64,000 bases of DNA from Chthoniobacterales bacterium. GTDB lineage: Bacteria > Verrucomicrobiota > Verrucomicrobiia > Chthoniobacterales > DASVRZ01. The position numbers were made by a program, and so were the translations under genes. The first letter of the stretch is position 1. Every line of letters begins with the position of its first letter. This document shows, one piece after another, positions 7,243-30,805 of this stretch. The notes below the pieces were generated by a model, which worked only from the letters and a program-made list of their open reading frames with translations, had not been told where the DNA came from and did not search any database. The DNA is taken from assembly GCA_036388355.1 (NCBI GenBank), contig DASVRZ010000079.1, positions 17 through 64,016 on the forward strand. Reading direction: 5' to 3'.

Positions 7243-9234
<1,992 letters not shown>

Positions 9235-9691: not shown

Positions 9692-9801
9692 GTCTTCAGC
9701 ATTGCTCTGGGTGAATAGCCGGGAAAGTGAGCACCTTTCAGTGAGCAGGCACCGTTTTGTGCCCATGCGGATTTTCTACGGTTTGTGCTATTTTCCGTCC
9801 G

Positions 9802-14233: not shown

Positions 14234-15697
14234 ATGCGCTATCTTCACGGCCCGCAAATGAACGCTGCCATCATCGACCCCTCCGCTCCTCCCGCTGCCG
14301 CTCCCAAGGTGGGAATGATTTCCCTCGGCTGCGCCAAAAACCTCGTCGATGCGGAGTTGATGCTCGGCAGCATTCTCGCCCATGGGATGGAAATCACCTC
14401 CGACGCCGACGACGCCGATGTGCTCATCGTCAACACCTGCTCCTTCATCGACTCTGCCAAAGAGGAATCCATCGACGCCATTTTCGAAGCGCACGAAGCC
14501 CGTGGAATGAAGCGCCGCCCGGGGCAAAAACTCATCGTCAGCGGCTGCATGGCCCAGCGTTTTTCGAAGGAACTCAGCGGCGAAATGCCCGAAGTCGATG
14601 CCTTCATGGGCCTCGATCAAGTCGCCCAAGCTGGAGACATCGTCGCTCAAGTGCTCGCTCGCCCGCGTATTGCGCTGGAGCCGAACCCCGCCGTCACCGA
14701 CGAAAACTGGCAGCCGCTGAACCTCGTCACGCGCAAGCCGGTTTACATTCCCGACTACGACACCCCGCGCTTCCGCCTCACCCCGGCGCACTCGGCTTAC
14801 GTGAAGATCGCGGAAGGTTGCAACCACCCGTGCAGCTTCTGCGTCATCCCGCAGATGCGCGGGAAACATCGCTCCCGCTCCATCCATTCGGTCGTCACCG
14901 AAATCCAGAACCTCGTCGCGGAAGGCGTCAAAGAATTCAACCTCATCAGCCAGGACACCACCTACTACGGCATGGATCTTTGGGAGCAAAAAGCCGGGCC
15001 GACGCAGCCGGTCGACTCGCAGCGGGGCGTTTCCCTCGTCCATCTGCTCGAAGCCATCGACCAGATCCCCGGCGACTTCTGGGTCCGCCTGCTCTACACC
15101 CACCCCGCGCATTGGAGCGACGAACTCATCGCCACCATCGCCCGCAGCAAACACGTCGCGCGTTACATCGACATGCCGCTGCAGCACATCCACCCCGAGA
15201 TGTTGCTCACCATGCGCCGCGAAACGACCAGCCAGCACATCGTCGATCTCATCGCCCGCATCCGCGCTGGCATTCCGGGCATCGCCATTCGCACCACCTT
15301 CATTGTCGGCTTCCCCGGAGAGACCGAGGAACATTTCGAGGCCCTCCTCAATTTCATCAAAACCACCCGCTTCGAGCGACTCGGCATCTTTACCTACTCT
15401 CAAGAGGAAGGTTCCCGCGCGGCGAAAATGGAAAACCAGCTGCCGGGCAAGGTCCGCCAGGCGCGTTATCGCAAAGCGATGAAACTCCAGCAACGCATCG
15501 CCGGAGAGATCGCCGCCGCCAACGTCGGCAAAACCATCCGCGCCATCGTCGATAGCCCGCTGGTGGCAAGAAGCGAAGCCGACGCCCCCGACGTAGACGC
15601 CCGCATCATCCTCACCAAGCCCGCGCAAGTCGGCGCCTTCGTAAACGTGCAAATCACCGGCACCCAAGTTTACGATTTGGTTGGCGAAGTCGTGTAG
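14234..15697 (+). CDS. rimO: Ribosomal protein S12 methylthiotransferase
   Basis: MISLGCAKNLVDAELMLG (UPF0004 domain), radical-SAM CNHPCSFCVIPQMRG, C-terminal TRAM. Start uncertain (ATG 14234, 14258 or 14315). Confidence 0.92.
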   Translation: MRYLHGPQMNAAIIDPSAPPAAAPKVGMISLGCAKNLVDAELMLGSILAHGMEITSDADDADVLIVNTCSFIDSAKEESIDAIFEAHEARGMKRRPGQKLIVSGCMAQRFSKELSGEMPEVDAFMGLDQVAQAGDIVAQVLARPRIALEPNPAVTDENWQPLNLVTRKPVYIPDYDTPRFRLTPAHSAYVKIAEGCNHPCSFCVIPQMRGKHRSRSIHSVVTEIQNLVAEGVKEFNLISQDTTYYGMDLWEQKAGPTQPVDSQRGVSLVHLLEAIDQIPGDFWVRLLYTHPAHWSDELIATIARSKHVARYIDMPLQHIHPEMLLTMRRETTSQHIVDLIARIRAGIPGIAIRTTFIVGFPGETEEHFEALLNFIKTTRFERLGIFTYSQEEGSRAAKMENQLPGKVRQARYRKAMKLQQRIAGEIAAANVGKTIRAIVDSPLVARSEADAPDVDARIILTKPAQVGAFVNVQITGTQVYDLVGEVV

Positions 15698-15725
15698 ACC
15701 TCGCTCTCCCCGCGGAGCTCAATAG

Positions 15726-16316
15726 TTAGGCATCACGACCGATTTTGGTCGCGATGATCAAGCCGGTCGCCCAGCAGAGTTTGGTAACCCTCAATTCAGC
15801 CCGGCTCTCTAGCTCCGCAATCAGGCGTGGAACCTTTGGAGCGTGATCTTCCGGCCAGTTAGGCTGCGGCAGTAGGTCGTCAATAATGTAAAGTCCGCCT
15901 GGCGCAAGCAACGCGAGAGCCTCTGGCAAATGCGTGAACTTACCGGGCCAGGTATCCGCATAGATGAAATCAAACGACCGCCCCTGTGACCGCTCCAAAA
16001 AAGCCGCGCCATCCTCGTGGTAAAAAGTCACTCGAGGGTCACCGGCCAAATGCTGCTGCGCGATGGCGAGCACAGTGGCGTCGCTCTCCACCGATTCCAG
16101 GACCGAGTCGGCATCCATACCAGCCAAAATTGAAGCCGTGCCAAGTCCAGTGCCCGTGCCAAGCTCCAGCAACTTCCCACGCGGTTTCGACGCTGCGAGA
16201 GTGCGTAGCAACGAGCCCGTTAGCGGGTCGGAAGCCATGTTGAAGCCGAGTGTCCGCGTCTCCGCGGAAATCGCATCAAGCAGGCCGGGCCGATTGGGAA
16301 TGTCATGGTCGTTCAT
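15726..16316 (-). CDS. Class I SAM-dependent O-methyltransferase (family 3-like); last cassette next to rimO
   Basis: LLELGTGTGLGTASILAGM (SAM motif I), ...FDFIYADTWPGKF..., LLAPGGLYIIDD. The stop TAA lies within gttaggc 15725..15731. Confidence 0.8.
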   Translation of the reverse strand: MNDHDIPNRPGLLDAISAETRTLGFNMASDPLTGSLLRTLAASKPRGKLLELGTGTGLGTASILAGMDADSVLESVESDATVLAIAQQHLAGDPRVTFYHEDGAAFLERSQGRSFDFIYADTWPGKFTHLPEALALLAPGGLYIIDDLLPQPNWPEDHAPKVPRLIAELESRAELRVTKLCWATGLIIATKIGRDA

Positions 16317-16332
16317 GGCTAAACCTGGATTA

Positions 16333-16361
16333 TGCTAACCTTTAGGTCCGGGTGGCTAGGC
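16333..16361 (-). repeat. Truncated attC-like site
   Basis: Minus: GCCTAGC-cacccggacctaaag-GTTAGCA. Only the two core-like heptamers remain. Confidence 0.4.
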
Positions 16362-16380
16362 TCCATTTCCATTTCCATGA

Positions 16381-16919
16381 TCACCCATTCTGCGGATTCA
16401 CCAACGCGTTCACCGTGTGATCCACATAGTGATCATATAGCCATTCTGCATCGCGAAGTACACCCTCGCGGGTAAACCCCAGGCGATCGGGAATGGCCTG
16501 ACTTTTCAGATTCTCCGTCGCCACCATGATCTCGATTCTGTTCAGGCGATACTCGGTGGACGCGTGATCCACCAAGGCACGACAACACTGCGTCATGATG
16601 CCTTTGCCTTCCGAACCCTTGGCGAGCCAATAACCGGGAAAGGCAATCCTGCTTTCCCAATCAATCCGGTTATAGCCAATTACCCCGCAGAGAGCCTCTT
16701 GATGCCAATACCGCATACAAAAGTGCCTACATCAGCAAACGCCCGGAGACTCGAGGCGATGAATGCCGCCGAATCCTCCTCGCTTTGGGTCTCGTCCAGC
16801 CATGGCAACCATCGGAGCAAGTGATCCCGATTTACGTCGGTCACACGGAAAAGCTCCTGCGCGTGTTGCTTCTGCAAAAGGCGCAGCTGGATGTCATTGG
16901 CTAGGTGGTAAGGAAACAT
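16381..16919 (-). pseudogene. RimJ/RimL-type GNAT N-acetyltransferase, disrupted by a 1-nt frameshift near 16707
   Basis: ORFs 16680..16919 (MFPYHLANDIQLRLLQKQHAQELF...FADVGTFVCGI) and 16381..16716 (..WHQEALCGVIGYNRIDWESRIAFPGYWLAKGSEGKGIMTQCCRALVDHAS...NLKSQAIPDRLGFTREGVLRDAEW) are the two halves of one GNAT. They join if ggtattggcat were ggtatttggcat. Confidence 0.75.
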
Positions 16920-16931
16920 TTCTCTTCGGGG

Positions 16932-16991
16932 AACAAACTCACGCAGCAGACGCGACAGCTTCGAGCCATCCGCTACGGCGCTTGGTTAGGC
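16932..16991 (-). repeat. attC-like site (degenerate 3' core)
   Basis: Minus: GCCTAAC-caagcgccg-TAGCGGATGG...GCGTCTGCTG-cgtga-GTTTGTT. It overlaps the last 6 codons of the VOC gene. Confidence 0.5.
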
Positions 16992-17401
16992 GAGTTCATC
17001 GTGCCGCCACTTAAGCCCGAGGACGACCAAAAAAACAAAACGTAGCCATCGGCATCTTTGACCTCGAACCCGCGCAAACCGTCATGAGTGTCCTTGAGCG
17101 GTTGCGAAAACGCCACATTGCGCGATGCAAACTCCGCCGCCAGCGCATCAGGATCGGGAACGTGAAGGTAAGCGTCCCACCGCGCAGCCGGTTCTTGCCT
17201 ATAGTTGGGACTTGGAGCGACCCCGACGCTTTTCAGCATGAGCATCGCGCCACCGCGGGACACCATGCCGAAAAAAGGATTCTCCGCAGGCTCCTGAAAA
17301 GCGATCTCGAATCCAAGCGAGTCGCGGTAAAACGCAAGTGCTAACGCCGCATGCCGCACGATGAAGAACGGCGAAATGCTGGATATTTCTGGTGGTGTCA
17401 T
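16973..17401 (-). CDS. VOC / glyoxalase-bleomycin-resistance family protein (cassette)
   Basis: SPFFIVRHAALALAFYRDSLGFEIAF...GGAMLMLK...FEVKDADGYVLFF, a paired beta-alpha-beta-beta-beta pattern. Confidence 0.8.
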   Translation of the reverse strand: MTPPEISSISPFFIVRHAALALAFYRDSLGFEIAFQEPAENPFFGMVSRGGAMLMLKSVGVAPSPNYRQEPAARWDAYLHVPDPDALAAEFASRNVAFSQPLKDTHDGLRGFEVKDADGYVLFFWSSSGLSGGTMNSPNQAP

Positions 17402-17421
17402 TTTGCAATTGGACGATATCT

Positions 17422-17521
17422 GCCGGGCGACCTCAAGCTCAACACTGACTCCGGGATCGCACGGACGCTGCGCAGGCAGACGTGACGGCCCGGAGCAGTT
17501 TGCTGCAGCGTCTCGTTAGGC
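17422..17521 (-). repeat. attC-like site (100 bp)
   Basis: Minus: GCCTAAC-gagacgctg-CAGCAAACTGCTCCGGG...CCCGGAGTCAGTGTTGA-gcttgaggtc-GCCCGGC. The 3' core is degenerate. Confidence 0.6.
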
Positions 17522-17533
17522 AACGTTGATTAC

Positions 17534-17848
17534 TCACGGCGCTCTCGGAGTGTAGGAAGAGGACCAACGCTGCATCTCAGCGGCCAACTCAGGAGCGATA
17601 TTGATCCACGTCGTGGAAGGTGTGTGTCGTAGCTCGTAGGCTTGGAGTTCGGCAGCACTGACAATATGTTTAAACCACTGCAGATAACTCCACTCGCGCG
17701 GCTTGGGGGAATGGAGATGACGGCGAATCGGCTCCCAATGAACCTCGACGGCCTCGCGATAGATGTAAGGAAGGGTCGCGATGCTCGGGCGGACGTAGAG
17801 ACGCTCCTGCTCGTCTATCCCGACTTCAGCGATGGAATCCGTGGTCAT
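17534..17848 (-). CDS. Hypothetical protein (cassette ORF)
   Basis: 104-aa ORF with no recognisable motifs. Its only canonical start (ATG 17848) lies inside the loop of the preceding attC-like site. Confidence 0.45.
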   Translation of the reverse strand: MTTDSIAEVGIDEQERLYVRPSIATLPYIYREAVEVHWEPIRRHLHSPKPREWSYLQWFKHIVSAAELQAYELRHTPSTTWINIAPELAAEMQRWSSSYTPRAP

Positions 17849-17878
17849 TCAGGCATTCGCTGCAGCGCGAGGTTAGGC
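17813..17878 (-). repeat. Compact attC-like site (66 bp)
   Basis: Minus: GCCTAAC-ctcgcgctg-CAGCGAATGC-ctgaATGaccacggatt-CCATCGCTGA-agtcgg-GATAGAC. Confidence 0.65.
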
Positions 17879-18229
17879 ATTTCCGGCCGCACAGCCAAAC
17901 CCGAGGTGATTGCCGTCAGGATCCACTGTCTCAAAGTCTCTCATCCCGTAGTCGTAGTTTCGTGGTTCGGCCTTGATAGTCGCCCCTTTGGCCTTGATCT
18001 CCGCGTAGTAAGAATCCACCTCATCGCAGAAAATGTAAGCGGTTCCTCCGCCAACGGGTCTGTCCTGGATTGAGTGACCAGAAAGATGCAGGCATGCCCC
18101 TCCAAGTTTAACGCCAGCGTAATCGCCGAAGCGGAAATCCTCAGAAAAACCGAGAATCTCAATGTAGTGCCTGAGGGCTGAATCTAGATTCGAAACTTGA
18201 AAGACGGGTGCTATGTTTTGAGTATTCAT
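17873..18229 (-). CDS. VOC / bleomycin-resistance-like glyoxalase family protein (cassette)
   Basis: PVFQVSNLDSALRHYIEILGFSEDFRFGDYAGVKLGGACLHLS...YGMRDFETVDPDGNHLGFG. Confidence 0.8.
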   Translation of the reverse strand: MNTQNIAPVFQVSNLDSALRHYIEILGFSEDFRFGDYAGVKLGGACLHLSGHSIQDRPVGGGTAYIFCDEVDSYYAEIKAKGATIKAEPRNYDYGMRDFETVDPDGNHLGFGCAAGNA

Positions 18230-18265
18230 GGGGTGAATTGGTTAAAGATGTTGTAAGGGAATTCC

Positions 18266-18299
18266 TCCTAACGACCTCAAGCTCGGCAAGTGATTAGGC
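18266..18299 (-). repeat. Truncated attC-like site (3' arm only)
   Basis: Minus: GCCTAAT-cactt-GCCGA-gcttgaggtc-GTTAGGA. Confidence 0.45.
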
Positions 18300-18773
18300 G
18301 ACTCGTTCATGGCGGAGTTGCTTGTGCATCGAAAACCGGCGGAGGTAAGCGCCTCGGCACTCGACGCACTCCTCGGCATCGAGTTGAAACCCTTGACTAT
18401 CAAAGAATGCCCTGGCTGCAAGACTAACGTGGGCGGTAACGCTCGGCACCCCGTCGGCCAGCAAAGCGGACTCGACGTGCTTGTAGAGGCTACTGGCCAC
18501 GCCACGACGGGCAAACGATGGATGAGTGAAAAGAAAGTCAATGTAGCCAGCGGGCGTGTATGAGGCGAAGCCCACGAGAACGCCATCCGACTCGGCGACG
18601 ATGGTGTGAAGCGGCGCAAGACGCTCCTCCCAGCGAGCCGCATCATCCGTAAGCGGTGCCCATGCGGCGATCTGATCCGCCGAGTAATAGGACGCTGCTA
18701 AAGTGCGAATCGAAGCCCTGTATATTTCGGCGCGACGAGGCAGATCGCCGGGTTCAGATGGTCTTACATTCAC
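18294..18773 (-). CDS. GNAT family N-acetyltransferase (cassette)
   Basis: (GTG)NVRPSEPGDLPRRAEIYRASI...TIVAESDGVLVGFASYTPAGYIDFLFTHPSFARRGVASSLYKHVE. The start was trimmed from 18884 to GTG 18773, because the upstream 37 codons translate the attC-like repeat. Confidence 0.8.
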   Translation of the reverse strand: MNVRPSEPGDLPRRAEIYRASIRTLAASYYSADQIAAWAPLTDDAARWEERLAPLHTIVAESDGVLVGFASYTPAGYIDFLFTHPSFARRGVASSLYKHVESALLADGVPSVTAHVSLAARAFFDSQGFQLDAEECVECRGAYLRRFSMHKQLRHERVA

Positions 18774-18790
18774 AGGCAGTGCGTAGAGGT

Positions 18791-18892
18791 GTCTAACAAC
18801 ATCGATCTCAGCAATGCAGAGGGACAGGCGGGGCTCCTGCGTATGCCAGGGACGTCTGCAGCCCTGCCATCCGCTGTAGCACATGGTTAGAC
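18791..18892 (-). repeat. attC-like site (102 bp) with perfect terminal inverted cores
   Basis: Minus: GTCTAAC-catgtgcta-CAGCGGATGG...CTGCATTGCTGA-gatcgatgtt-GTTAGAC. Confidence 0.7.
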
Positions 18893-18917
18893 GGCGTTGA
18901 GATGTGAGTCGCGCCGT

Positions 18918-19178
18918 TCATTCTTTGCGGGCGTCATCCGACTGGAGCTTTGAGGCACCGACCGCCGAACCGATCAGAAAGAGAGCGAAAAGGATGGTGA
19001 AGCCACAGAGCATAAAAAAGCAAACGTTGCCGATGCTGCTTGCGGCTCGCCCGAACCCGAAGACCGCACAGAACATTCCTATAGCGGAGGTAAAGACGGT
19101 AGATACGAAGGCAACTATGCTGGCTGTGCCCAGCTTGCGCTGAGCCTTCATTCCTTTGATCAAATTTTCGAGCTTCAT
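18918..19178 (-). CDS. Small two-TM membrane protein (cassette)
   Basis: 86 aa with two hydrophobic helices (GTASIVAFVSTVFTSAIGMFCAVFGF; VCFFMLCGFTILFALFLIGSAV). Confidence 0.5.
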   Translation of the reverse strand: MKLENLIKGMKAQRKLGTASIVAFVSTVFTSAIGMFCAVFGFGRAASSIGNVCFFMLCGFTILFALFLIGSAVGASKLQSDDARKE

Positions 19179-19199
19179 TATGTTTATAGAGTGGAAATT

Positions 19200-19247
19200 G
19201 CCTATCGATCCAAGCTCAGCACAAGGTCTGGCATGGCCGTGAGTAAC
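19200..19247 (-). repeat. Truncated attC-like site (3' arm only)
   Basis: Minus: ...CCTTGTGCTGA-gcttggatc-GATAGGC. No RYYYAAC core next to the upstream stop codon. Confidence 0.4.
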
Positions 19248-19748
19248 TCAATGGCGCACAATTGAAACTGCATAAGGGTGAACATGCATTGTCCCATGGG
19301 ATAAAGCCCTGAGGTGGCGTATCGCCTCACGCAAAGATTGGTTCTCTAGGCGGAGCGTGAATACCGGCTCTGGGGACGGAGGGGCAGAAATAGTCTTGAG
19401 CACCAGATTGACGCCGCGGTCACGCGGACGGTCCGCCATCTTATCGCTCTGTTTGGCAGCCTCTCGCAAAACCTGGACCGCCTCCTGAATAGTTGCTTCG
19501 CGTATGTTAAATACGGGAATGACAATCCTATCGAGCTTGCGTTCAAGTAGGGCTTGTGCTGATCGCTCTGGGCTAATCGCTTTGTAAGATCGAGTAGCGA
19601 GTGAAGGCCGTTCCGGAGCAGGCGACGGCTGTAGATAAATTGGGGGGTTAGCGGGGAGAATCAGATCGCGCGGCGCTGAGTCGCCATACATCAATTGGGG
19701 AATGATGAGAGCCGCTAAAAGCAGAAGTGTTTTTGTCACGGTGAACAA
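19248..19748 (-). CDS. Secreted hypothetical protein
   Basis: TTG/GTG start, signal peptide (FTVTKTLLLLAALIIPQLMYG). Mature part contains IVIPVFNIREATIQEAVQVLREAAKQS..GVNLVLK, reminiscent of short secretin/STN-like N-domains (weak inference). Confidence 0.5.
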   Translation of the reverse strand: MFTVTKTLLLLAALIIPQLMYGDSAPRDLILPANPPIYLQPSPAPERPSLATRSYKAISPERSAQALLERKLDRIVIPVFNIREATIQEAVQVLREAAKQSDKMADRPRDRGVNLVLKTISAPPSPEPVFTLRLENQSLREAIRHLRALSHGTMHVHPYAVSIVRH

Positions 19749-19760
19749 TGTAAAAGCGCC

Positions 19761-20078
19761 CTACCGCGTTGTTCCTGGAATCCCATTCACGGAAACAGCG
19801 CCCGTCTGGTGGATCGTGACCGTGTCTCCGCTCTTCACAAAGCCATAGTTGTTGCCGTCCACGGTCAACTGCCCGCCCTACTCGGTAATGGAGAGCGAAT
19901 CGCCCGTGAAGGAGAAGCTGTCGCCAGACACATTCGTGGAGCTCGATTTCTGGACGGGCAGTTCGTAGGTGATGCCGCGAGTTTGGACCTTGGAGCCCGC
20001 AGTGCCGCTGCTGCTAACGTTGGGCTTGCAGGCGGCCAGGCAGGCGACCAATAGCGTGTAGAGAATGAGTTTGCGCAT
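19761..20078 (-). pseudogene. Small lipoprotein with an in-frame TAG (19878..19880); intact 66-aa version is 19878..20078
   Basis: MRKLILYTLLVACLAAC (lipobox). After ..DSLSITE-TAG the frame stays open for 38 more protein-like codons (GGQLTVDGNNYGFVKSGDTVTIHQTGAVSVNGIPGTTR) up to TAG 19761. Confidence 0.4.
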
Positions 20079-20114
20079 AGTTTTATGAGGATGACGATTT
20101 TGCGGCCAAGGTCT

Positions 20115-20627
20115 TCATGTTTGGTATTTTGTTACTCTGATCTGAGCAAGAACATGGGAAATGCGGGACTCCAGGAGCGAATCATCACCTGCATTTTCGA
20201 TCACTTGGTGCGGAATCGTCGGTAATTCAAACTGCGGATTGATGATCTCCCCATAATAGGCGGTAGCTAAGTGACCGGTCCGTTGCTGAAGCCGCTCCGA
20301 AATCAGCATCGGAGTGCTTTTAACCCAAACAAAATCCAACCCAGGGATAGCCTCGCGGACTTTCTCCCGATGCCTATTCTTAAACAACGCCTGCGCAACG
20401 CAAAAATGCTCGTGCGTTGCTTCCAGTGTCTTGATGCGTGAGATGATTGCTTCTGTAAATTCGTCTCGCATGTCGTCGCAGATCGGCTCCTGCTTTTCTA
20501 TAGCCTCTCGGATGCGTGGAGGCAGGTCGTGGTCGGCGTCGTGAAAATGGATCCCAAACCGCGAGTTCAGCAGCGAGCCAATATGAGTCTTCCCGGAACC
20601 AATCTGGCCAAAGAGCATGATCTTCAT
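20115..20627 (-). CDS. Gluconokinase (GntK/IdnK)-family P-loop kinase
   Basis: MKIMLFGQIGSGKTHIG (Walker A), FHDADHDLPPRIREAIEKQEPICDDMRDEF and CVAQALFKNRHREKV...FVWVKSTPMLISERLQQRTGH are colinear with GntK as I recall it. Confidence 0.7.
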   Translation of the reverse strand: MKIMLFGQIGSGKTHIGSLLNSRFGIHFHDADHDLPPRIREAIEKQEPICDDMRDEFTEAIISRIKTLEATHEHFCVAQALFKNRHREKVREAIPGLDFVWVKSTPMLISERLQQRTGHLATAYYGEIINPQFELPTIPHQVIENAGDDSLLESRISHVLAQIRVTKYQT

Positions 20628-20634
20628 TTTTTCT

Positions 20635-20670
20635 GCCTAACGAGACAAGCTCAGCGATGCGGTGTTGGCT
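20635..20670 (-). repeat. Truncated attC-like site
   Basis: Minus: AGCCAAC-acc-GCATCGCTGA-gcttgtctc-GTTAGGC. Confidence 0.45.
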
Positions 20671-20676
20671 GTTGCG

Positions 20677-21159
20677 TCATTCGGCGGTGAAATGCCTGCG
20701 ATACTTCACGAAGGCACGCTTGGTGTCGCTGGTAAACCCGCACCGCCGGAAAAAGGAATGGGCAGCCTCGCGTTTGGTGCTGCTCAAGAGCATGAGCTTG
20801 GTGCAGTCGTGGGCACTGGCCAACCGCTCCACGTGACCCAGCAGAAGACGGCCAAAGCCACGTCCACGCATCGCCTGCGTCACGATGACCTTCTCGACTA
20901 CACCAAAGGGTTGCGTGCGATACATAGCATCCGGGCAGATGGTCAGAAGCGCGGTTGCACAAACGCCACTCTCGGCCTCGGAAACAAGAAGGTGACTAGT
21001 CGGTGAATCGTAGAGCGTGGCAACCTGCTCCGGGAGGACGCGAATGAGTGGGTCAGAAACTAACTCGCGGTAAAGGTTCTCGATGGCTGGGGCGTCGTCC
21101 GCTGTGGCTTTCCGGATGGCGGATGGCGTCGCTTGCAGATGGTTTTGGCTTTCGTTCAT
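20677..21159 (-). CDS. GNAT family N-acetyltransferase (cassette)
   Basis: MNESQNHLQATPSAIRKATADDAPAIENLY...VEKVIVTQAMRGRGFGRLLLGHVERLA (Q/RxxGxG/A acetyl-CoA motif). Start moved to ATG 21159, 17 nt after the GTTAGGC core. Confidence 0.85.
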   Translation of the reverse strand: MNESQNHLQATPSAIRKATADDAPAIENLYRELVSDPLIRVLPEQVATLYDSPTSHLLVSEAESGVCATALLTICPDAMYRTQPFGVVEKVIVTQAMRGRGFGRLLLGHVERLASAHDCTKLMLLSSTKREAAHSFFRRCGFTSDTKRAFVKYRRHFTAE

Positions 21160-21176
21160 GGGAGACGGGTAGCGAT

Positions 21177-21305
21177 GCCTAACGAGACACAAGATCAGCT
21201 GCCGCGAGCCCAATGCAATTCCGTTCGCACGCACGACGTGGATGACAAACACCCAGAGCGTAAATCGCAGGCTTGCTCGCGGTCAGCTGCATCGCCTGGT
21301 TAGGC
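21177..21305 (-). repeat. Best-preserved attC-like site (129 bp)
   Basis: Minus: GCCTAAC-caggcgatg-CAGCTG(A)CCGCGAGC...GCTCGCGGCAGCTG-atcttgtgtctc-GTTAGGC. The 7-bp terminal inverted repeats are perfect. The inner arm is 14 bp with one bulged A. Confidence 0.75.
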
Positions 21306-21713
21306 GTTCGGACGCTGTGTATAGGTGGGAAGATCATCGCAGATCGGGATCCAAGGAAGCTTGTCTTCGGTCCAGATATGACGTTGAGGCGTGACCTGCC
21401 GTGGATCATCAAAGCTGGCAACGGTCGCGCCAATAATCGGCGCTTCTTCGGCCCTCAGGAAGAAGAGCTGCGTGCCGCAGTTCTGGCAGAAATGTCTGAT
21501 CCGCTCATTCTGCACATGCAATTTGGGGGCGCCCGCGACAATCTCGAAGTGGTGCCTTTCGAAGCCAGCCCAAGTAACGAAGGGCGCTCCGGCTGCCCGC
21601 CTGCAATCGTCACAATGGCAGTGGAGGACGCGCTGGCAGTCGAGCTGACCACGAAACCGAATGGCGCCACAAAAGCAGCCTCCCTCGATAGAAATGCGAT
21701 TCGAGCCGCTCAC
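21300..21713 (-). CDS. GFA family protein (glutathione-dependent formaldehyde-activating / CENP-V-like Zn-binding fold) (cassette)
   Basis: (GTG)SGSNRISIEGGCFCGAIRFRG...HCHCDDCRRAAGAPF...FCQNCGTQLF. Start trimmed from 21779 to GTG 21713; the upstream codons translate the attC-like repeat. Confidence 0.8.
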   Translation of the reverse strand: MSGSNRISIEGGCFCGAIRFRGQLDCQRVLHCHCDDCRRAAGAPFVTWAGFERHHFEIVAGAPKLHVQNERIRHFCQNCGTQLFFLRAEEAPIIGATVASFDDPRQVTPQRHIWTEDKLPWIPICDDLPTYTQRPNA

Positions 21714-21721
21714 AGTAAAAC

Positions 21722-21824
21722 CCCTAACGCCCTCCAGTTCAGCGATGCGAAGGGATGAACCGGGCTCCTGCGTATGCACGAGACGTGCGTAGACCGGAGC
21801 ATTCGCTGCAGCGCTTGGTTAGAG
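21722..21824 (-). repeat. attC-like site (103 bp)
   Basis: Minus: CTCTAAC-caagcgctg-CAGCGAATGC...GCATCGCTGA-actggagggc-GTTAGGG. The L-arms pair with one extra A. Confidence 0.7.
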
Positions 21825-21830
21825 AGAAGG

Positions 21831-22126
21831 TTAGTGGTCATGAAACTTGCCTTTCACTCGGCTATCGGCGCCGAAAAATACCTTCACGCTGCACCACTTC
21901 AACCGTAGAAATCCACCGTAGAAAAACACAGTCGTATCTGGAGCGTCACGGCGCACCGCGTTTGGGACCCCAAGAAGATCCCGAACCTGCACCTCGGTCA
22001 TGCCGTTGGTAACCTGCGCAAATCTGCCCGTGGCGACTGCCTCGCTGGAAACAAAGAATATCACGACGCAATACCGCCAACCACCAGAGCAGCAAGCAAT
22101 CTCGAAGTGTTGGTCTTCCGTTTCAT
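21831..22126 (-). pseudogene. BamE/SmpA-OmlA-like small envelope protein, apparent 1-nt frameshift near 22064
   Basis: ATG 22126 (14 nt after the GTTAAGC core) opens MKRKTNTSRLLAALVVGGIAS-TGA. The track ORF 21831..22064 continues in the -1 frame with (V)IFFVSSEAVATGRFAQVTNGMTEVQVRDLLGVPNAV.... Joined, they give one signal-anchor helix plus a BamE-like domain. Confidence 0.5.
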
Positions 22127-22140
22127 GGCAGCGTCATAGT

Positions 22141-22225
22141 GCTTAACGTCCCTAACCTCAGCGAAGCGCGGCTCGGGCGCGCCTCCTGCGCAGGCCTGAG
22201 CATTCGTTGCAGCGCATGGCTAGGT
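22141..22225 (-). repeat. attC-like site (85 bp)
   Basis: Minus: ACCTAGC-catgcgctg-CAACGAATGC...GCTTCGCTGA-ggttagggac-GTTAAGC. Confidence 0.65.
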
Positions 22226-22624
22226 GCTTCGGGGTGTTGGAGGTTGAACGCCGATGAATCGGCGAAGGTAGTCGTAATCCGGCGGCTCTGAGCTGACCTC
22301 GATGATGTCCTCGCCGCAGCCTGTGCGGGCGTCGGCAATGCCGATAGCGAAGTCGTGGTGGAACTCGCGACGCAACTCGGTGCAAAAGCCAACGACTGCC
22401 TCCACGTCTGTGAACCAACCGGGCGGCTCGTGATACGGTTCGGGCAGAGAAAGGTTAAGTCCCAGCTCCCAGTCATCGGCGCCACGCTGCTGATTGACAA
22501 CCCAAACGTCGGGGCTGTGCCACTGCCGACTTGCGATGAAGCTGTCGATGCGTTCGGCAACCTGTTCCGCGACGCCGCTAAACTCCGGTCCGATGGCATA
22601 AGCATACAGTGTGTGGTGAGCCAT
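22220..22624 (-). CDS. Hypothetical protein (first cassette-like ORF)
   Basis: 134-aa ORF with ordinary composition and no motif I recognise. It is followed by an attC-like site. Confidence 0.55.
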   Translation of the reverse strand: MAHHTLYAYAIGPEFSGVAEQVAERIDSFIASRQWHSPDVWVVNQQRGADDWELGLNLSLPEPYHEPPGWFTDVEAVVGFCTELRREFHHDFAIGIADARTGCGEDIIEVSSEPPDYDYLRRFIGVQPPTPRST

Positions 22625-22731
22625 GCAGTTGGGATTAGAAGCCTATGGTTCAAGGGAGCCGCGAGGGTAAACGCGGAATCTACACGGCAGCGAATGGGGG
22701 TGCGTTGCCCGATTTCGTGGAAAAGGGTCGC

Positions 22732-25700
22732 TTAACTAAGGCCATTCAATACGGCGATGAGGCGTTCTTGAGCAGCTTGATTCTGACGGAACCAATCTGT
22801 GGACCAAATTCGGTAAATTTTCCACCCGCGTCTTTCCAAGACTTCTTGCCGCAAGCGATCACGATCCCGAACCGTCTTGCCGGAATGATACATCGCTCCG
22901 TCGCATTCGATGCCTAGGATGAACTCGCCTGGCCGGGCGGGATGCTCCACACCTATGTCGATACGGTAGCTGCTCACGCCCACTTGCGGCACTACTCGGA
23001 AACCAGCGCTGTGAACAACGCGCATGACGGCTTCTTCAAAATAGGAATCCGGAGCTTGGCCAGTAATCTGTCCGTTGTCCGCAAGAACCTGAGTCTGGGC
23101 GAAACGCAGATAGTCACGAAGGTCATTAACACCATTTGGTTCCCCGGGCCGCCCCAAGATTTGATCATGTGTCATAGAACTAAAAACCTCCAGGCGCCTC
23201 TTGGCTCTTGTGAATAGTACGTTCAGCCGGCGGCGACCACCTGCGCCAGCAATAGGTCCAAATCGCTGCATGATCTTGCCTGTGTTCAGATCGGCACCAT
23301 ACGTGCAAGAGATAAAAACCACGTCGCGTTCGTCGCCCTGGACATTCTCTAGATTCTTGACTGCAAAGGGCTCTTTGGGGTGCTGACGAGCTTCTTCCAA
23401 TCGCTCAAGAAGCTCCTCATCTTCCGCGGCATACTTATCAACTAACGCTTCGATAAGCTCTTGCTGCGGCCGATTGAAGGTCGCAACGAGGAGGGTTTCC
23501 GTAGAGTTCTCCACCAGATGATGCAGGGCCGCGCGGGCCACCATTTCGGCTTCAATCTCATTCACACGTGCACCAGCTTTGTAACGCCCCTCAGGAAGAT
23601 GGTGAAACTTGATACCAAGCCTGCCTGCTTTGTCACTGGCAGCAGGGAAGACAATCAGTTCCTCGTCATAATAAGCATAATTTGAAAACCGGATTAGGCT
23701 TTCATGCTGACTGCGGTAGTGCCACAGAAGGCGCTGGGCAGGTGGAAAGGCGTTCCTGGCGCATTCAAGAATTGACTCTGAATCTTGTGCTACCCCGCGG
23801 CCCGTAGCTTCTTCATCGGTATCGTCTTCATCGTCCTCATTCAGAGTGCGGCTCCAATAACTGCTAGGAGGCATCTGCTTTGTGTCCCCGACAACGACAA
23901 TCTGCTTTGCACGAGCAACCGCTCCGAGAGCGTCTTCGGGCCTGATCTGAGAGGCTTCATCCATCACGACAAGGTCGAAAGGGGTGCAGCTTGGGTCCAG
24001 ATATTGCGCAACTGACAGCGGACTCATCATGAGGCACGGCTTCAAGGCCACAACTGAACGCCCGGCGCGCTGCATGAGCTGACGAATGGGGATATGCTTG
24101 GTTTGCTTATTAACCTCGTTGCGGAGGAGTGGCCACTCGCTCCACACTTTCACTGGCCCCACCCCATTTCCAGCAGGCACACGACGTTCTGCCGCTCGCT
24201 GCGCGACTAGAATCTGAGACTGCTTCAATAGTTCACGGTCTGTGATACGAAAGCTGTCAGTTAGGTGTTGGTGGGATTGGTGGGTGAAGGTTTCAAGCTC
24301 CCGGAAAGTTCTCAAAATCTCGTAGCCGTAGAACTCACTTACTGCGAGGTCGAATGCCTCGTGTGCCTGCTCCGGTGGCAACGTGCCATCGATGACCTGA
24401 TCGACAGCGAAACGCGCGGCCAATTCATCTGCCCGTGTATAAAGCTTCCTAAAAAGCGCCCACTGCTGCAGGAGATGTGCTTGCGCTTTGAAGGTGCGAA
24501 TACGGTCTACGCGTTCTGTCCAAGACGCTTCAGAAGAGCCCCAGAGCCATTGCTTATCAATGGTGCCGTATCCCTCCAGACGGGTAACGATGGATCGGCA
24601 TGTGGAAATACGCTGGCGAAACTTCAGAAGCATGGCGCCAACTCTGGAAACACGATCAGCTATATTACCACCGAGCACCCACTGAAAAAGTGGAGAAGGG
24701 AAATCGAGAGCACGAACGTCCTCGACCCATTTTTGCGTTACTGAAAGGCCCTTCCAATCGCTTGAGAGTCCACGCGCATGTTTACCAGCTACTCTTTGAA
24801 ATCCTTCATTAGAGGAGACCGAGTGCTCAAGCCGCTCAGCCGTGATGATATGCCCCGCGGCTTCGCTCAGGTCGGAAAAGGTGCTGCTCTTTTGAACCGC
24901 CACTGCAAAAACCGCGTCTAGGGTCTGACGGAGCCAATTCGACCACTCTTCTGTTACGCGCCGAAGTTCCATGAGTTCAGTGTCCCGATAGGGCCTACCA
25001 TTAAAAAGCGGCTCTATTATGGTATTCGCGCCTTCAGCGCACCCGTCGAGCCGGCGGAGCAGAACTTCGACGCTCACTGTTAACTCACGCACCCTCTGCT
25101 GGACGTCAGGTTGCGCAACTCTTTCGACTGTTTCCCACGGCAGCGCTTCCTGTGTCATCGCTAGTCCCCAATCGATGGCACCAGACAACGTGAGCCAATC
25201 CGTTTTGAGACCGGCAAAGCCCGGTCCCAGCACGTCTCTCAAAGCCGCGCGAGAAGCGAAATCTTCAGTAGCTAAGCTCCACTGCTCGAGCTTTTCCAAT
25301 GATTGGAGAATAATCGGAAACGCGAAAAGGCTTCGAGATTGAGTGAACCCCAGCACATCTTTCCGGGCTTCTCGGTAATCTCGACTGAAGATAGAGAACC
25401 AGCGACCGCCCGTTGCTCGGAGGCACTTCTTTAACTGACCCACACCGTCGGCGTTCGGCGCATCAGCCATGGCAAACATCGTCTCCAGACTTTTTCGTGC
25501 ATCAGCTAGTTTAGCCGCTTCCGCCTTAGCACCTGTGAATACGTTGCGGGCGTTTGGAAAGCGGTGTTCTGGGGTAAGTAGACGTTCGATCGATCCTGGT
25601 GCAGAACCGCAAACTCGCAGTCGGGGGAGAAATCGCTCCAAATCGTGAAGCGTGGCGGCGGCACCGAGTCCCAATTCTGCAATCGACTGCGCCAGAATTA

Positions 25701-27804
25701 CCGCCTCGCTTGCCAACTCGGTGACTTCCGCAAGCGATGGCAAGCTCTCCTGCAGGATTGAAATCGGAGTGTCTCCGAGACGTTGTGCGATGGCAGTCTC
25801 GCTCGACTGTTGCAACCACTGACCTAGGCCACCGCGAGAGATGGCACCACTGCTTAAAACTTCAGCGGCTTCCTGCAAATGCTCCTGGCTGGCTTGCGCA
25901 TTCTTGATGATCTGAAGGAGCGCCGTCGAGTTCTTTACCGAAACAAGATGAGGAACGATCTCAGGAATGAACCCCACGGGTATCTCTGGTAGCGACTCAG
26001 GTCCCGAATTCAAGGAGCATTCGAGAAATGCAGGACCGGGGCACGCGGAAGGTGCAGTTGTTTCATCGAACAGGGCGGCGTCCGTGGCGGCTCCTTCCAG
26101 TTCCTCCGCCAGCTCGCCAAAGATACGTTCTATCGCTAGTTCGTCCCCCGCTCGAGTTTGCTCGCACAAGAATCCTTTCCAAGGATGATCTCGGAAGTCT
26201 GCGGGGTTTTGTAGATGCCGACCTATCTCCTGCAAGCAGGTGAGCGCATCATCAAATTTATCGGCGTCGATTTCCAGTCGCGTTAACGGATCGCGAATCG
26301 TCGGGATAGCTTGCCCGCGGAGGGCTATCGCGCGGCCCATTATCCTAAACGCGGCTTCTGTGCGTGGGCCAAGGCACCGGCCACATGCCTCTAGATATTG
26401 GTTAAGCTGGCTAACCTGTTGCCGCCACTTCCTCCGCGTTGAATCAAACTGATTCGCTGTTGGGGCTGACCAGTGGATCCTCCGTTGCATCGCAGAATGA
26501 ACCTCTTGTTTGCGGGTCTTGTGACTGTGGAGTTCCAAACAGAATTCTCCTAATCCAACGACATCTAAATTGCGCTTCACCACCTCGAGTGCAGCAAGCT
26601 TCTCAGATACAAAAAGCACCGTTTTTCCTTGGTGAAGGGCTGCGGCAATTATGTTCGTGATCGTCTGGGACTTGCCCGTTCCCGGTGGCCCCTCAACCAC
26701 AAGATTGCGGCCCTCCCAAGTCTTGAGAATGGCCGTATGCTGCGAACTATCAGCTTCTACGACGAGCGGGATGTCGTGTGCAACAGGATGGTCATCAGTT
26801 ACTTCGACTCCGCCGTATCCTACTTCTTCGGTTTCAATCACACTTCCGTCGAGGATCTGCTGGACGAGGGGATTTTCCAGGAGACCGCATCCTTCCGGCC
26901 ACTTGGCAGGATCTAGATCGATATACATCCGCATTTTGGCGAAAGAGAAGAAGCTAATAAAGGCCGTGTCTTCAACTTGCCATCCATCCCTTCCCCGAAC
27001 AGCCCTCTCAACCTCGGAAAGGTATCCCTGCACGTCCGTGAACTCCTCGCTAAACCTCGGTAGATCTAGGCCGAAGTCCGTCCGAAGCCGCTCGATAAGC
27101 GAGAGATTTGGGTAAAGCTCTCCCCCATCATGCATTACGGTGTAGTGGCGAGTGGTCCCGGCACCTACTTCTTTTTTCCTCTCGATGAGAATCGGTATCA
27201 GCAACAGAGGCGCGCGGCGGTCTTGTTCAGAATCGTCACTCTCCCGCCACCGAAGAAAACCTAAGGCTAGATAAAGATGGTTGATGCCTGTCTCATCCGA
27301 GACGGCCTTAGCTTCCCGCCGGATGTACTCAGCGCGTGCTTCCAGATCGCCGTCATCGTGGCTACAGACGATCTGTCGCCGTGCCGAAGCTTTCTCCACA
27401 TCCCCACGCGACGCTATCTGCGGCTCCGAAGCCACGCTCGGCTTTTTCCGTTTGCTTAGTTCTCCTTTGACGAGGTATTGCACCCCCGGTTGAAGCCGGA
27501 GCTGTTTATCCTCATCCTCGGTGAGCTTTGAAAAGAGCTCACTGAGGTTTGGAAGGGTCACCTCAATGCATGATTTCTTAGGAGGGCGAAAGCTAACTAG
27601 CTTGTTTCGATTGCTAATATCAATTAAGCGCTTCCGCAGGACGTCAAGATGATGCGCAATGGTTTCTGGGGCAGATGACACGGGGTGTAGAGGACCTTCT
27701 AAAACGACTTTCTTCAACCAAATTCCCCGCAGCGAGATCCGTTGCTCGCGAGAGCGGTGATCGGAATCCCGAGATTCAAGACCATAGCCGCGGCGGGTGA
27801 GCAC
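22732..27804 (-). CDS. Giant SF1 (Upf1/DNA2-like) helicase fused to a C-terminal Vsr/DUF559-like endonuclease fold (DUF4011 - AAA_11/AAA_12 - REase-like architecture)
   Basis: N-terminus: RNKLVSF...HLYLALGFLRWRESD..RRAPLLLIPILIERK. Helicase motifs: VVEGPPGTGKSQTITN (Walker A), LVVMDEASQIRPEDALG, VVVGDTKQMPP, LLWHYRSQHESLIRFSN, VQGDERDVVFIS, RRLNVLFTRAKRRLEVFSS. A ~700-aa insertion separates the two RecA halves. C-terminus: YRIDIGVEHPARPGEFILGIECDGAMYHSGKTVRDRDRLRQEVLERRGWKIYRIWSTDWF. GTG start at 27804 is uncertain. Confidence 0.85.
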   Translation of the reverse strand: MLTRRGYGLESRDSDHRSREQRISLRGIWLKKVVLEGPLHPVSSAPETIAHHLDVLRKRLIDISNRNKLVSFRPPKKSCIEVTLPNLSELFSKLTEDEDKQLRLQPGVQYLVKGELSKRKKPSVASEPQIASRGDVEKASARRQIVCSHDDGDLEARAEYIRREAKAVSDETGINHLYLALGFLRWRESDDSEQDRRAPLLLIPILIERKKEVGAGTTRHYTVMHDGGELYPNLSLIERLRTDFGLDLPRFSEEFTDVQGYLSEVERAVRGRDGWQVEDTAFISFFSFAKMRMYIDLDPAKWPEGCGLLENPLVQQILDGSVIETEEVGYGGVEVTDDHPVAHDIPLVVEADSSQHTAILKTWEGRNLVVEGPPGTGKSQTITNIIAAALHQGKTVLFVSEKLAALEVVKRNLDVVGLGEFCLELHSHKTRKQEVHSAMQRRIHWSAPTANQFDSTRRKWRQQVSQLNQYLEACGRCLGPRTEAAFRIMGRAIALRGQAIPTIRDPLTRLEIDADKFDDALTCLQEIGRHLQNPADFRDHPWKGFLCEQTRAGDELAIERIFGELAEELEGAATDAALFDETTAPSACPGPAFLECSLNSGPESLPEIPVGFIPEIVPHLVSVKNSTALLQIIKNAQASQEHLQEAAEVLSSGAISRGGLGQWLQQSSETAIAQRLGDTPISILQESLPSLAEVTELASEAVILAQSIAELGLGAAATLHDLERFLPRLRVCGSAPGSIERLLTPEHRFPNARNVFTGAKAEAAKLADARKSLETMFAMADAPNADGVGQLKKCLRATGGRWFSIFSRDYREARKDVLGFTQSRSLFAFPIILQSLEKLEQWSLATEDFASRAALRDVLGPGFAGLKTDWLTLSGAIDWGLAMTQEALPWETVERVAQPDVQQRVRELTVSVEVLLRRLDGCAEGANTIIEPLFNGRPYRDTELMELRRVTEEWSNWLRQTLDAVFAVAVQKSSTFSDLSEAAGHIITAERLEHSVSSNEGFQRVAGKHARGLSSDWKGLSVTQKWVEDVRALDFPSPLFQWVLGGNIADRVSRVGAMLLKFRQRISTCRSIVTRLEGYGTIDKQWLWGSSEASWTERVDRIRTFKAQAHLLQQWALFRKLYTRADELAARFAVDQVIDGTLPPEQAHEAFDLAVSEFYGYEILRTFRELETFTHQSHQHLTDSFRITDRELLKQSQILVAQRAAERRVPAGNGVGPVKVWSEWPLLRNEVNKQTKHIPIRQLMQRAGRSVVALKPCLMMSPLSVAQYLDPSCTPFDLVVMDEASQIRPEDALGAVARAKQIVVVGDTKQMPPSSYWSRTLNEDDEDDTDEEATGRGVAQDSESILECARNAFPPAQRLLWHYRSQHESLIRFSNYAYYDEELIVFPAASDKAGRLGIKFHHLPEGRYKAGARVNEIEAEMVARAALHHLVENSTETLLVATFNRPQQELIEALVDKYAAEDEELLERLEEARQHPKEPFAVKNLENVQGDERDVVFISCTYGADLNTGKIMQRFGPIAGAGGRRRLNVLFTRAKRRLEVFSSMTHDQILGRPGEPNGVNDLRDYLRFAQTQVLADNGQITGQAPDSYFEEAVMRVVHSAGFRVVPQVGVSSYRIDIGVEHPARPGEFILGIECDGAMYHSGKTVRDRDRLRQEVLERRGWKIYRIWSTDWFRQNQAAQERLIAVLNGLS

Positions 27805-27840
27805 GCTCTATGTAGAAACCCAAACCCGTCGATTCCCCGC

Positions 27841-27889
27841 AAAACGGAAACTGCCGGAGCCTGCGTCTCTACAACGTTGGCTCCGGCAG
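27841..27889 (-). terminator. Rho-independent terminator after the PG-binding protein gene
   Basis: Minus: CTGCCGGAGCC-17 nt-GGCTCCGGCAG followed by TTTCCGTTTT. Confidence 0.7.
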
Positions 27890-27908
27890 GTGTCCTATCA
27901 AATTTGTC

Positions 27909-28445
27909 TTAGTAACCGAGTCCGAAATTCACGATCAAGCGGCCATCAACTTCGCCGTCACGACGCCACCCGCGGTTGGATTGGTAGCTGACGAGCGCAG
28001 CGCGGCTGCCGGGGCCCCAAATACCGTCGAGGGGTCCGCGATAGTAGCCTTCGCGGCGGAGGACGACTTGGAGATCGTAGTAATTGTAGCCGTAAGGGCG
28101 GTCCTCATAGACGACGACGCGGCGCGGGTAACGGCTCCGGTAGCTGAAGTCTCCGCGGCGGTTGCGATAATCGCGTCCGTCGTCGGCGTATTCCCGGGTC
28201 ACCACCACGCGGCGGTCCACGACGACTTCGCGGCGATCTCTATCGTAGCGATCTCCGTCTCTGCGGTCGTTGTCGTAACGGGTAACGGTGCGGCGATCTC
28301 CGTCGCGGACGACCACGACGCGTTCGGCGTTGGCGCGGCGCTTCTTGTCTTTTTTCTTGTCCTTGTCTTTGGCTTCCGCGGCGGGCGCGGTGAAGACGAA
28401 GGCCAGACAGGCGAGCGTGAGAAAGGGCAGAGTTAGTTTTTTCAT
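27909..28445 (-). CDS. Secreted protein with Arg/Asp-rich low-complexity region and C-terminal peptidoglycan-binding-like domain
   Basis: Signal peptide MKKLTLPFLTLACLAFVFTAPAAEA, then KDKDKKKDKK, RD-rich repeats (DRRDGDRYDRDRRE..). C-terminus LQVVLRREGYYRGPLDGIWGPGSRAALVSYQSNRGW..DGEVDG (PG_binding_1-like). Confidence 0.7.
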   Translation of the reverse strand: MKKLTLPFLTLACLAFVFTAPAAEAKDKDKKKDKKRRANAERVVVVRDGDRRTVTRYDNDRRDGDRYDRDRREVVVDRRVVVTREYADDGRDYRNRRGDFSYRSRYPRRVVVYEDRPYGYNYYDLQVVLRREGYYRGPLDGIWGPGSRAALVSYQSNRGWRRDGEVDGRLIVNFGLGY

Positions 28446-28708
28446 AGTCTGGGGTTCGACTCCGGGGAGCAGCGTCTATTCATTAAACGGCTCCCTATGC
28501 CTTCTGAGTGCATTTAACTCAGGTTTTGCCCTTAGACCTTCTAAGGCTGTGATTAGGAGCGGTCGGATGGGAGGGTGTTCCTCCGCCGGAAGAGCGTAGG
28601 GCTCCTGCTGGAGCACCGCGCCTTCCGTGCTTGGACGATTGGGACGCGGAATATCAGCGCTCCCCGTTAGCTCGGCTCCGACTTTGACCGGATGCGGGTC
28701 ACCTTCCG

Positions 28709-30754: not shown

Positions 30755-30805
30755 CGCGTTCCATCGGGTGCCACCGGGAGAAATTCAAGCGCGGATGTGA
30801 ACGAA

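Follow-up and report, generated by a model that had tools for sequence, protein, structure and literature searches.

The question raised by this locus is what kind of element lies between rimO and a large helicase gene in the genome of an uncultured bacterium, and whether its units can still be mobilized. The stretch of DNA analyzed as a whole, hereafter the window, has a length of 64,000 nt, and positions are given in window coordinates unless another contig is named. It belongs to a metagenome-assembled genome (MAG) labelled 'MAG TPA: Chthoniobacterales bacterium' and thereby to the Planctomycetes-Verrucomicrobia-Chlamydiae (PVC) group, as had been supposed in a first-pass annotation made from the letters alone; an ENA contig and a JGI contig carry the same DNA with 1 mismatch in 21 kb. 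About 14 short minus-strand open reading frames (ORFs) or ORF fragments are found between rimO and the gene for a 1690-aa helicase. The stretch from 15725 to 22735 is very probably a CALIN (cluster of attC sites without an integron integrase), left over from an integron array of about 12 cassettes that this uncultured Chthoniobacterales (Verrucomicrobiota) bacterium carries in its chromosome. This reading is directly supported by the anatomy of the sites, their membership in an attC family found in real integrons, the lack of an intI gene in view, the absence of the array from close relatives, one shared cassette and the marks of decay.

Anatomy of the attC sites and their wider family

In the array, each unit pairs a short ORF with an attC site placed after it. 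The bottom strand of an attC site folds into an imperfect hairpin that has an R box and an L box with an unpaired spacer between them, two bases flipped out of the L box, and a variable loop; the tyrosine recombinase IntI binds this hairpin and cuts between A and C of AAC, leading to cassette excision or insertion. In the window, the block CTAAC-N5-GCTGCAGCGAATG was found, with at most three mismatches, in six copies (0.16 expected), each of them on the minus strand and none outside 16967-22223. The integron-type array with genuine attC sites that the first-pass annotation had read from these repeats was upheld by two covariance models trained on foreign sequences. Model R1 was built from ten attC sites, all from other genomes, and has a 7-bp R box, a 13-bp L box and two bulges on the 5' arm; in its structure 94% of the cells pair as compared to 24-41% with slid partners. 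With filters off, R1 returned from the whole window the six sites annotated before, to the base, plus one remnant of 34 nt, all on the minus strand, and the next-best match anywhere in the 64 kb had E=0.2; still weaker matches mark the remnants 20635-20685, 16936-16991, and 19200-19232. Model R2, trained on the five attCs of the contig L105 (ENA ERZ25067479 contig_8) alone, recovered the same seven positions with E-values of 4e-10 to 0.023 and nothing else in the 64-kb window below E=0.1. Rfam at gathering thresholds gave no match in the window.

The sites, all of which lie on the minus strand, are unequally preserved. Pairing of the RYYYAAC/GTTRRRY R box is 7/7 in sites B, C, and E, 5/7 in A and G, and 4/7 in H. 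Site B (21722-21824, 103 nt) is the best preserved (R1 54.3 bits, E=6.4e-13; R2 42.9 bits, E=4.1e-10), and site C (21177-21305, 129 nt; R1 38.5 bits, E=2e-8), with 14/14 pairs in the L box, and site E (18791-18892, 102 nt; R1 42.5 bits, E=1.5e-9; R2 4.6e-6) are likewise intact. Site A (22141-22225, 85 nt; R1 27 bits, E=3.5e-5; R2 2.3e-5) is weakened, with an R'' of ACCTAGC and an L box paired at 10/14 positions. All six had been annotated as full sites, which does not hold for two of them: 17422-17521, site H, has its full length of 100 nt (R1 35.7 bits, E=1.2e-7; R2 E=0.0011) with an R' mutated to GCCCGGC and so without the GTT cleavage core, and 17813-17878 (R1 E=0.0046) is the model match of a 5' half-site, site G, made up of R'' and L'' at 17853-17878, which extends into the coding sequence of a cassette gene of the Hfx_Cass5 family.

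Shorter remnants lie between these sites. Remnant D (20635-20685) is a 3' half, GCATCGCTGAGC-N8-GTTAGGC, that lacks the R''/L'' arm and was located as an exact pattern match (R1 E=0.84); the possible 3' remnant K (19199-19232, GCTGAGCTTGGATC GATAGGC), for which the R1 match of E=7.2 is not significant alone, is 86% identical to the 3' end of D. Remnant F (18266-18299) has 34 nt, from an R'' of GCCTAAT to GAGCTTGAGGTC GTTAGGA, and was seen by both models (R1 E=0.019; R2 E=0.02). Remnant I (16936-16991) is a 5' half, found by pattern at 3 mismatches (R1 E=4.7, not significant alone), which keeps R''-L'' and part of a loop resembling that of an attC in L006 and has lost its 3' arm. A 29-nt remnant at 16333-16361 (GCCTAGC-N15-GTTAGCA) was recognized by eye from the sequence, with no covariance-model support, and at the end of the array stands a bare terminal R'' core, GCCTAAC (15725-15731), 27 nt from the rimO stop, which holds the stop codon of a methyltransferase gene while the rest of the attC is absent. 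Of the gaps, nearly all of which had been noted earlier to hold a palindrome, 20115-20078 and 19878-19748 contain no attC site. Neither can the heptamer GTTAAGC at 22736-22730 be retained as a core and a G|TT insertion junction: it is the conserved Ser-stop of the helicase gene, AGT TAA here and AGT TGA in a 78%-identical homologue, and not a demonstrable cassette junction. Altogether, three sites are intact (B, C, and E), three are recognized by the models and are weakened, cleavage-dead or a half-site, and six are shorter remnants or bare cores; the array is decaying.

The geometry of the sites is in accordance with what is required of attC hairpins, in which the first extrahelical base lies at position 16 and the last at 23 or 24 with a spacing of 6 bp (Nivina et al.; PMC5027507, PMC7439510) and the L box has its extrahelical bases, two or three in number, on the R''-L'' arm (PMC5027507, PMC7439510). 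In all full sites the bulges are at positions 16 and 23, counted from the start of R'', and enclose a stem of 6 bp. The lengths of the five full sites (85, 100, 102, 103, and 129 nt), with 28-71 nt between the L-box arms, fall within the range of about 57-141 bp given for attC sites with variable terminal structures. As the bulges share their arm with the AAC of the top strand, the bottom strand, which is the one recombined, corresponds to the plus strand of the window and the cassettes are in canonical orientation. In an alignment of 24 family members 93% of the cells pair, as compared to 24-37% with slid partners, and 12 of the 20 pairs are changed on both sides; none of 500 shuffles reached the observed pairing and covariation values, a result to be read with the caveat that the alignment was fitted to the model. 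Site C illustrates this, since its CAGCTG/CAGCTG L box differs from the consensus CAGCGA/TCGCTG in a compensatory manner.

The attC family had been taken as private and undescribed, which proved wrong. The exact 19-base R''-L'' pattern of the window occurs in seven stretches among 185,579 species genomes, namely in Verrucomicrobiaceae, Chthoniobacteraceae, Rhodoferax, Syntrophobacteraceae, and Anaerolineae MAGs and twice in one unclassified MAG, and at least four of these seven foreign stretches finish in GCTGAGC-N-GTTAGRC; by this pattern and the covariance models, the same family is present in the Verrucomicrobiaceae, Chthoniobacteraceae, Rhodoferax, and unclassified MAGs and in metagenome contigs. 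In the unclassified MAG (MFD04580.bin.2.110; L005 and L009) ten members form a tandem attC array that begins beside an N-terminal fragment of intI, a divergent ORF that corresponds to positions 1-77 of the integron-integrase model TIGR02249 (E=7e-25). With the IntI fragment of L009 as query, only short fragments were obtained, one of which led to L105. There, intI consists of two adjacent ORFs on positions 1-74 and 80-313 of the 315 positions of TIGR02249 (281 bits; cut-off 265) and is divergent from at least five attCs of the same family (58-78 bits). On this sequence evidence the family, which occurs twice beside intI, appears to be one used by real integrons. The L105 locus (5870-10990 of that contig) is in itself a canonical integron with an intI split into ORFs of 82 and 243 aa, possibly by a long-read indel, and an array interrupted by IS110-family and DDE_Tnp_1 transposases. 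In a Verrucomicrobiaceae MAG (JAIXQH010000023.1; L003, 371-2795) a C-terminal intI remnant and the three attCs downstream of it share one strand, and because of this the integrase reads towards the cassettes in the 'inverted' orientation.

A further link to other arrays is provided by the Hfx_Cass5 cassette. Its closest homologue (80% aa identity) is on the contig L100, where the ORF together with its R'' forms a module of 84% nt identity. L100 carries attCs of the same family (814-937, E=1e-6), and the neighbouring ORFs differ from those of the window; judged from the sequences, this module is the one direct sign that units of this array were exchanged as cassettes. The shared block (17852-17516) starts 4 nt ahead of the Hfx_Cass5 ATG and reaches as far as the R'' past its stop, and L100 has no R''-L'' arm upstream of the coding sequence. 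Since L100 thus conserves the coding start without that arm, the apparent L' and R' of site G are explained as the start of the Hfx_Cass5 gene. The other cassette proteins of the window had no homologue in other attC-bearing loci.

Integrase search, origin of the array and alternative readings

No integrase had been noticed in the earlier annotation, and the searches agree with this. An IntI1 probe, validated by its finding intI pieces in L003, L005, and L009, gave no tblastn match in the 64-kb window, and the Phage_integrase domain is absent from the Pfam scans and the gene-call domain lists of the window and of 10 kb past its right end; there is no intI within 15 kb on one side of the array and about 51 kb on the other. 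The ORF 16680-16919, considered as an integrase on account of a Phage_int_SAM_1 match (E=0.0017, below cut-off), was rejected as the N-terminus of a RimJ-like GNAT. No attI site and no cassette promoter (Pc) were recognized, for neither of which a general model exists. The locus thus lacks the arrangement of a complete integron, in which intI stands beside the first cassette with attI and Pc. A CALIN has been defined by at least two attC sites with neighbours less than 4 kb apart and no intI nearby (Cury et al., 2016; PMC4889954), and here five sites of full length, besides remnants, are found within 7 kb with no intI nearby. Sedentary chromosomal integrons have been delimited as those that occur in every genome of a species or exceed 19 attC sites (Cury et al., 2016; PMC4889954); the array has about 10 recognizable sites or remnants, and the nearest relatives found (RimO 91% aa) do not have it. 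Of the two options left by the first-pass annotation, a CALIN or the distal part of a sedentary chromosomal integron, the latter is unlikely because the helicase gene and conserved chromosomal genes close the array upstream and close relatives are without it.

The comparison with relatives shows that array and helicase gene form a lineage-specific segment. Relatives from a 90%-identity RimO cluster (L090-L092; rimO identity to the window 81% nt, 91% aa) share the synteny upstream of rimO, comprising T2SSF, LpxA-like, and LpxC/FabZ genes. Past rimO they carry Band_7 and PagL and then a PG_binding_1 gene that aligns to window 27909-28153, and because Band_7 and PagL occupy this place the 12.2 kb of window 15694-27908 with array and helicase are considered lineage-specific. 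A metagenome scan yielded 80 more distant rimO loci (65-74% identity) with neither shared synteny nor attC matches, for which reason they are uninformative on cassette shuffling.

How the array came about and what it still does can be proposed from these observations. The sites presumably were, or are, recombined by an IntI, and the array probably originated when its integrase was lost or became separated from it. With no IntI nearby, any movement would need an integrase acting in trans. Most cassettes may by now be fixed, since B, C, and E alone keep every feature needed for recombination. Transcription reading through from the co-oriented helicase gene, or promoters of their own, might drive expression of the genes; a promoter and terminator scan found no excess over shuffles.

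Several observations weigh against the array being a set of typical attC sites cut off from their integrase. The first extrahelical base is 'usually G' on the bottom strand (PMC5027507); the first bulged base, at position 16, is a C on the bottom strand in five of the six sites of the window and in 18 of the 25 sites of the family. The 3' unpaired spacer has 8-9 nt, as the L box is delimited here, compared to the usual 5-6, the 5' spacer having 5 nt; this asymmetry is conserved across the family, including beside intI. Folding energies of single sites mostly equal those of shuffles (A, E, and H with z of -0.1 to -0.9), with R and L boxes often missed. The DNA fold of site C recovers the R and L boxes (z=-2.3) and site B reaches z=-1.8, and because single-site folding is mostly indistinguishable from shuffles the comparative structure was relied on. 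As to the models, three of the ten R1 training sites had come from a window-derived pattern, a dependence from which R2 is free, and both R1 and R2 are family-specific surrogates and not the attC model of IntegronFinder. Moreover, neither recombination nor an excision circle nor any polymorphism of the cassettes was observed, the three assemblies of the population being identical, and the negative result for intI covers about 74 kb of contiguous sequence. With respect to the base at position 16, C prevails among the window and Verrucomicrobiota sites, the sites of L105 have the canonical G and the array of L005 mixes C and G types. It is conceivable, if doubtful, that a C16 sub-type dominates the Verrucomicrobiota arrays seen here, with the G type alongside it in L005, and is shared with the Rhodoferax MAG and unclassified MAGs; it would then mark a cassette pool of soil and freshwater reaching across phyla, and its IntI lineage would be indifferent or adapted to that base.

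The reading of the repeats as a dispersed element of the REP (repetitive extragenic palindromic) or MITE (miniature inverted-repeat transposable element) kind, or as terminator hairpins shared by short genes, and not as recombination sites, starts from the fact that they are imperfect palindromes in intergenic gaps past stop codons, most of them with unremarkable single-site fold energies. It is largely refuted and has next to no probability left. A dispersed repeat had been named in advance as the counter-case to attC sites; the repeats are limited to one 7-kb stretch (15.7-22.3 kb), to one strand and to one orientation relative to the ORFs, with no copies in the other 57 kb of the window, in the 10-kb extension or in the relatives. 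They show no T-run and no terminator excess, possess RYYYAAC/GTTRRRY cores and the 16/23 bulge geometry, and are detected by models from intI-adjacent arrays.

An array that is still active as a satellite, split off from or seeded at a secondary site by an integron with an intact intI elsewhere in the genome and reshuffled in trans, would not be without precedent, since about half of the CALINs are in replicons that also encode IntI, and rearrangement and insertion at secondary sites are possible origins of CALINs (Cury et al.; PMC4889954). Sites B, C, and E are structurally intact, and the same attC family is served by the integrase of the L105 integron. We nevertheless regard this as unlikely: most sites are weakened, cleavage-dead, truncated or mere remnants, three ORFs look disrupted, the three assemblies are invariant, intI is missing from the ~74 kb, and conserved codons account for the G|TT at the stop of the helicase gene that could be taken for a junction. 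Somewhat less likely still is that the whole 12.2-kb segment arrived together as one mobile or defence island in which the cassettes have a functional link to the helicase/nuclease gene. Helicase gene and array are adjacent, co-oriented and both missing at this locus in relatives, their GC content is similar (0.53-0.58), and the helicase family moves between contexts. Against this, the homologues of the helicase (72-78% identity, four loci) sit in unrelated contexts with no attC sites nearby, which speaks against a joint transfer of arrays and helicase, such a helicase is missing from all other attC-bearing loci, and R1 and R2 find no attC upstream of the gene. A decaying CALIN thus remains the preferred reading.

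Cassette genes and chromosomal neighbourhood

The cargo of the array, all on the minus strand, is described here from the helicase end towards rimO. The first cassette ORF (22220-22624, 134 aa), which abuts the helicase stop codon, belongs to no known family and is the sole member of its 90%-identity cluster. It is followed by a BamE-like small lipoprotein gene (21831-22124; Pfam BamE 1.3e-4, below cut-off), with signal peptide and domain in different frames, so that the sequence has an apparent frameshift, by a gene of the glutathione-dependent formaldehyde-activating enzyme family (GFA; 21300-21713; Pfam GFA 3.3e-25) and by a gene called for a GNAT acetyltransferase of 160 aa (20677-21159; Pfam Acetyltransf_1 1.4e-13). 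The next three ORFs form a block of 1.4 kb with no internal attC (19248-20627), made up of a P-loop kinase gene (20115-20627), an ORF of lipoprotein-like type that contains an in-frame stop (19878-20078), and a fragment from the Amuc_1098 family (19248-19748). The last of these matches only positions 241-354 of 805 of the family of the Akkermansia Amuc_1098 type IV pilus outer-membrane protein and looks like a gene fragment. Beyond the block lie an ORF for a predicted membrane protein of 86 aa without family (18918-19178), a further gene call for a GNAT acetyltransferase (18294-18773, 159 aa; Pfam Acetyltransf_10/_1), a VOC/glyoxalase gene the stop of which is the TAA of R'' (17873-18229, 118 aa), and the Hfx_Cass5 'Integron cassette protein' gene (17534-17848, 104 aa; Pfam PF18287, 9.5e-21). 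The remaining units encode a protein of the VOC/glyoxalase-bleomycin resistance fold (16973-17401, 142 aa; Pfam Glyoxalase 2.2e-9), a GNAT identified by Pfam as Acetyltransf_3 that is split into two overlapping frames by an apparent frameshift (16381-16919) and was called as two genes in two independent assemblies, and a class I S-adenosylmethionine-dependent methyltransferase (15726-16316, 196 aa; Pfam Methyltransf_24/25). In all, three of the ORFs look disrupted.

By Pfam and NCBIfam the cargo thus comprises three GNATs, two VOC/glyoxalase proteins, GFA, the methyltransferase, the P-loop kinase, the BamE-like protein, and Hfx_Cass5, in addition to the lipoprotein-like ORF, the 86-aa membrane ORF, and the Amuc_1098-family fragment. 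The list given in the first-pass annotation agrees with this in its GNATs, VOC proteins, GFA, methyltransferase, and small secreted or membrane ORFs and had missed the P-loop kinase and Hfx_Cass5. The four ORF ends reported to coincide with the TAA inside an R'' of GCCTAAC or GCCTAAT (15726, 17873, 18294, and 21300) were confirmed. Start codons, said to lie 7-36 nt past each 3' core, do so at six of seven sites as read from the sequence, the exception being site A, where the first ATG is just 3 nt and the ATG of the signal peptide 16 nt past the core.

On the chromosomal side, rimO (14234-15697, plus strand; Pfam UPF0004, Radical_SAM, and TRAM_2) is a conserved flank convergent with the array. 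Upstream of the array, the helicase gene (22732-27804, minus strand), identified by Pfam as a DUF4011/SF1 helicase/MTES_1575 nuclease-like gene, is not a cassette. This gene is itself variable in its surroundings, as homologues have PIN/VapB genes for neighbours (L096) or lie within a phage-like block (L099). The window further contains a fused LpxC-FabZ gene of 439 aa (12636-13955) that is conserved in the relatives. As two more segments, 28154-37972 and 41125-46596, have no counterpart in the close relative L090, the neighbourhood seems to be generally mosaic. Near the right end, a Hen1-like RNA methyltransferase gene (62072-63466) is followed by a gene with AAA_33, Metallophos, and PNKP_ligase domains (L093, 10001-13938), and the two genes constitute a bacterial Pnkp/Hen1 RNA-repair pair. 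Furthermore, at about 56078-57804 (L093, 4007-5733) an HNH endonuclease gene adjoins that of a metallo-beta-lactamase-fold protein, the latter also matching PF23023 Anti-Pycsar_Apyc1.

Comparison with known integrons and CALINs

The array is an ordinary example of a well-known kind, a decaying CALIN and not a working integron, and existing knowledge of integrons is unchanged by these findings. A study of 2016 had already described integrons in Verrucomicrobia and Planctomycetes, as well as 279 CALINs among 2484 genomes (Cury et al.; PMC4889954). Taxon-specific attC models cover 11 taxa, Verrucomicrobia not among them (PMC8352920). What is added here is, for Chthoniobacterales, the record of a cassette array together with an attC alignment and model that can be used, further an attC family common to Verrucomicrobiota, a betaproteobacterial MAG and other bacteria, and a clear snapshot of array decay after loss of the integrase, visible in half-sites and mini-remnants, in the loss of a cleavage core and in broken ORFs.

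Compared with the CALINs described by Cury et al. (2016), the array likewise has at least two attCs less than 4 kb apart, no nearby intI and cassettes mostly unrelated to resistance, and, as in 95% of the published CALINs, no recognizable intI pseudogene within 10 kb (PMC4889954). Nothing essential is different; the array is more eroded than the definition needs, and its host is an uncultured Chthoniobacterales MAG. The sites share with those of the L105 and L005/L009 integrons the consensus GCCTAAC-N5-GCT[G/C]CAGCGAA ... TCGCTGAGC-N8-9-GTTAGGC and the positions of the bulges, and the loci have tandem co-oriented short ORFs in common. The L105 and L009 arrays begin at a divergent intI, near full length in the former and an N-terminal fragment in the latter, whereas the array in the window begins at the helicase gene, and the L105 sites have G on the bottom strand at bulge 16 where most window sites have C. 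The classical 59-base element (59-be) primers HS286 and HS287 were also compared with the 3' ends of the sites and rejected as a match, with 4-7 and at least 9 mismatches, respectively, indels not being allowed. The sedentary integrons of Vibrio and Xanthomonas resemble the array in being chromosomal, in having mutually similar attCs and in a cargo with GNATs, VOC/glyoxalase proteins and many unknowns. They differ in that the array has no intI, about 10 sites instead of tens to hundreds, and no conservation in close relatives. Moreover, its attC family is not taxon-specific as theirs are, but spans phyla, and this spread fits the observation that attCs group by environment and not by phylogeny (PMC8352920).

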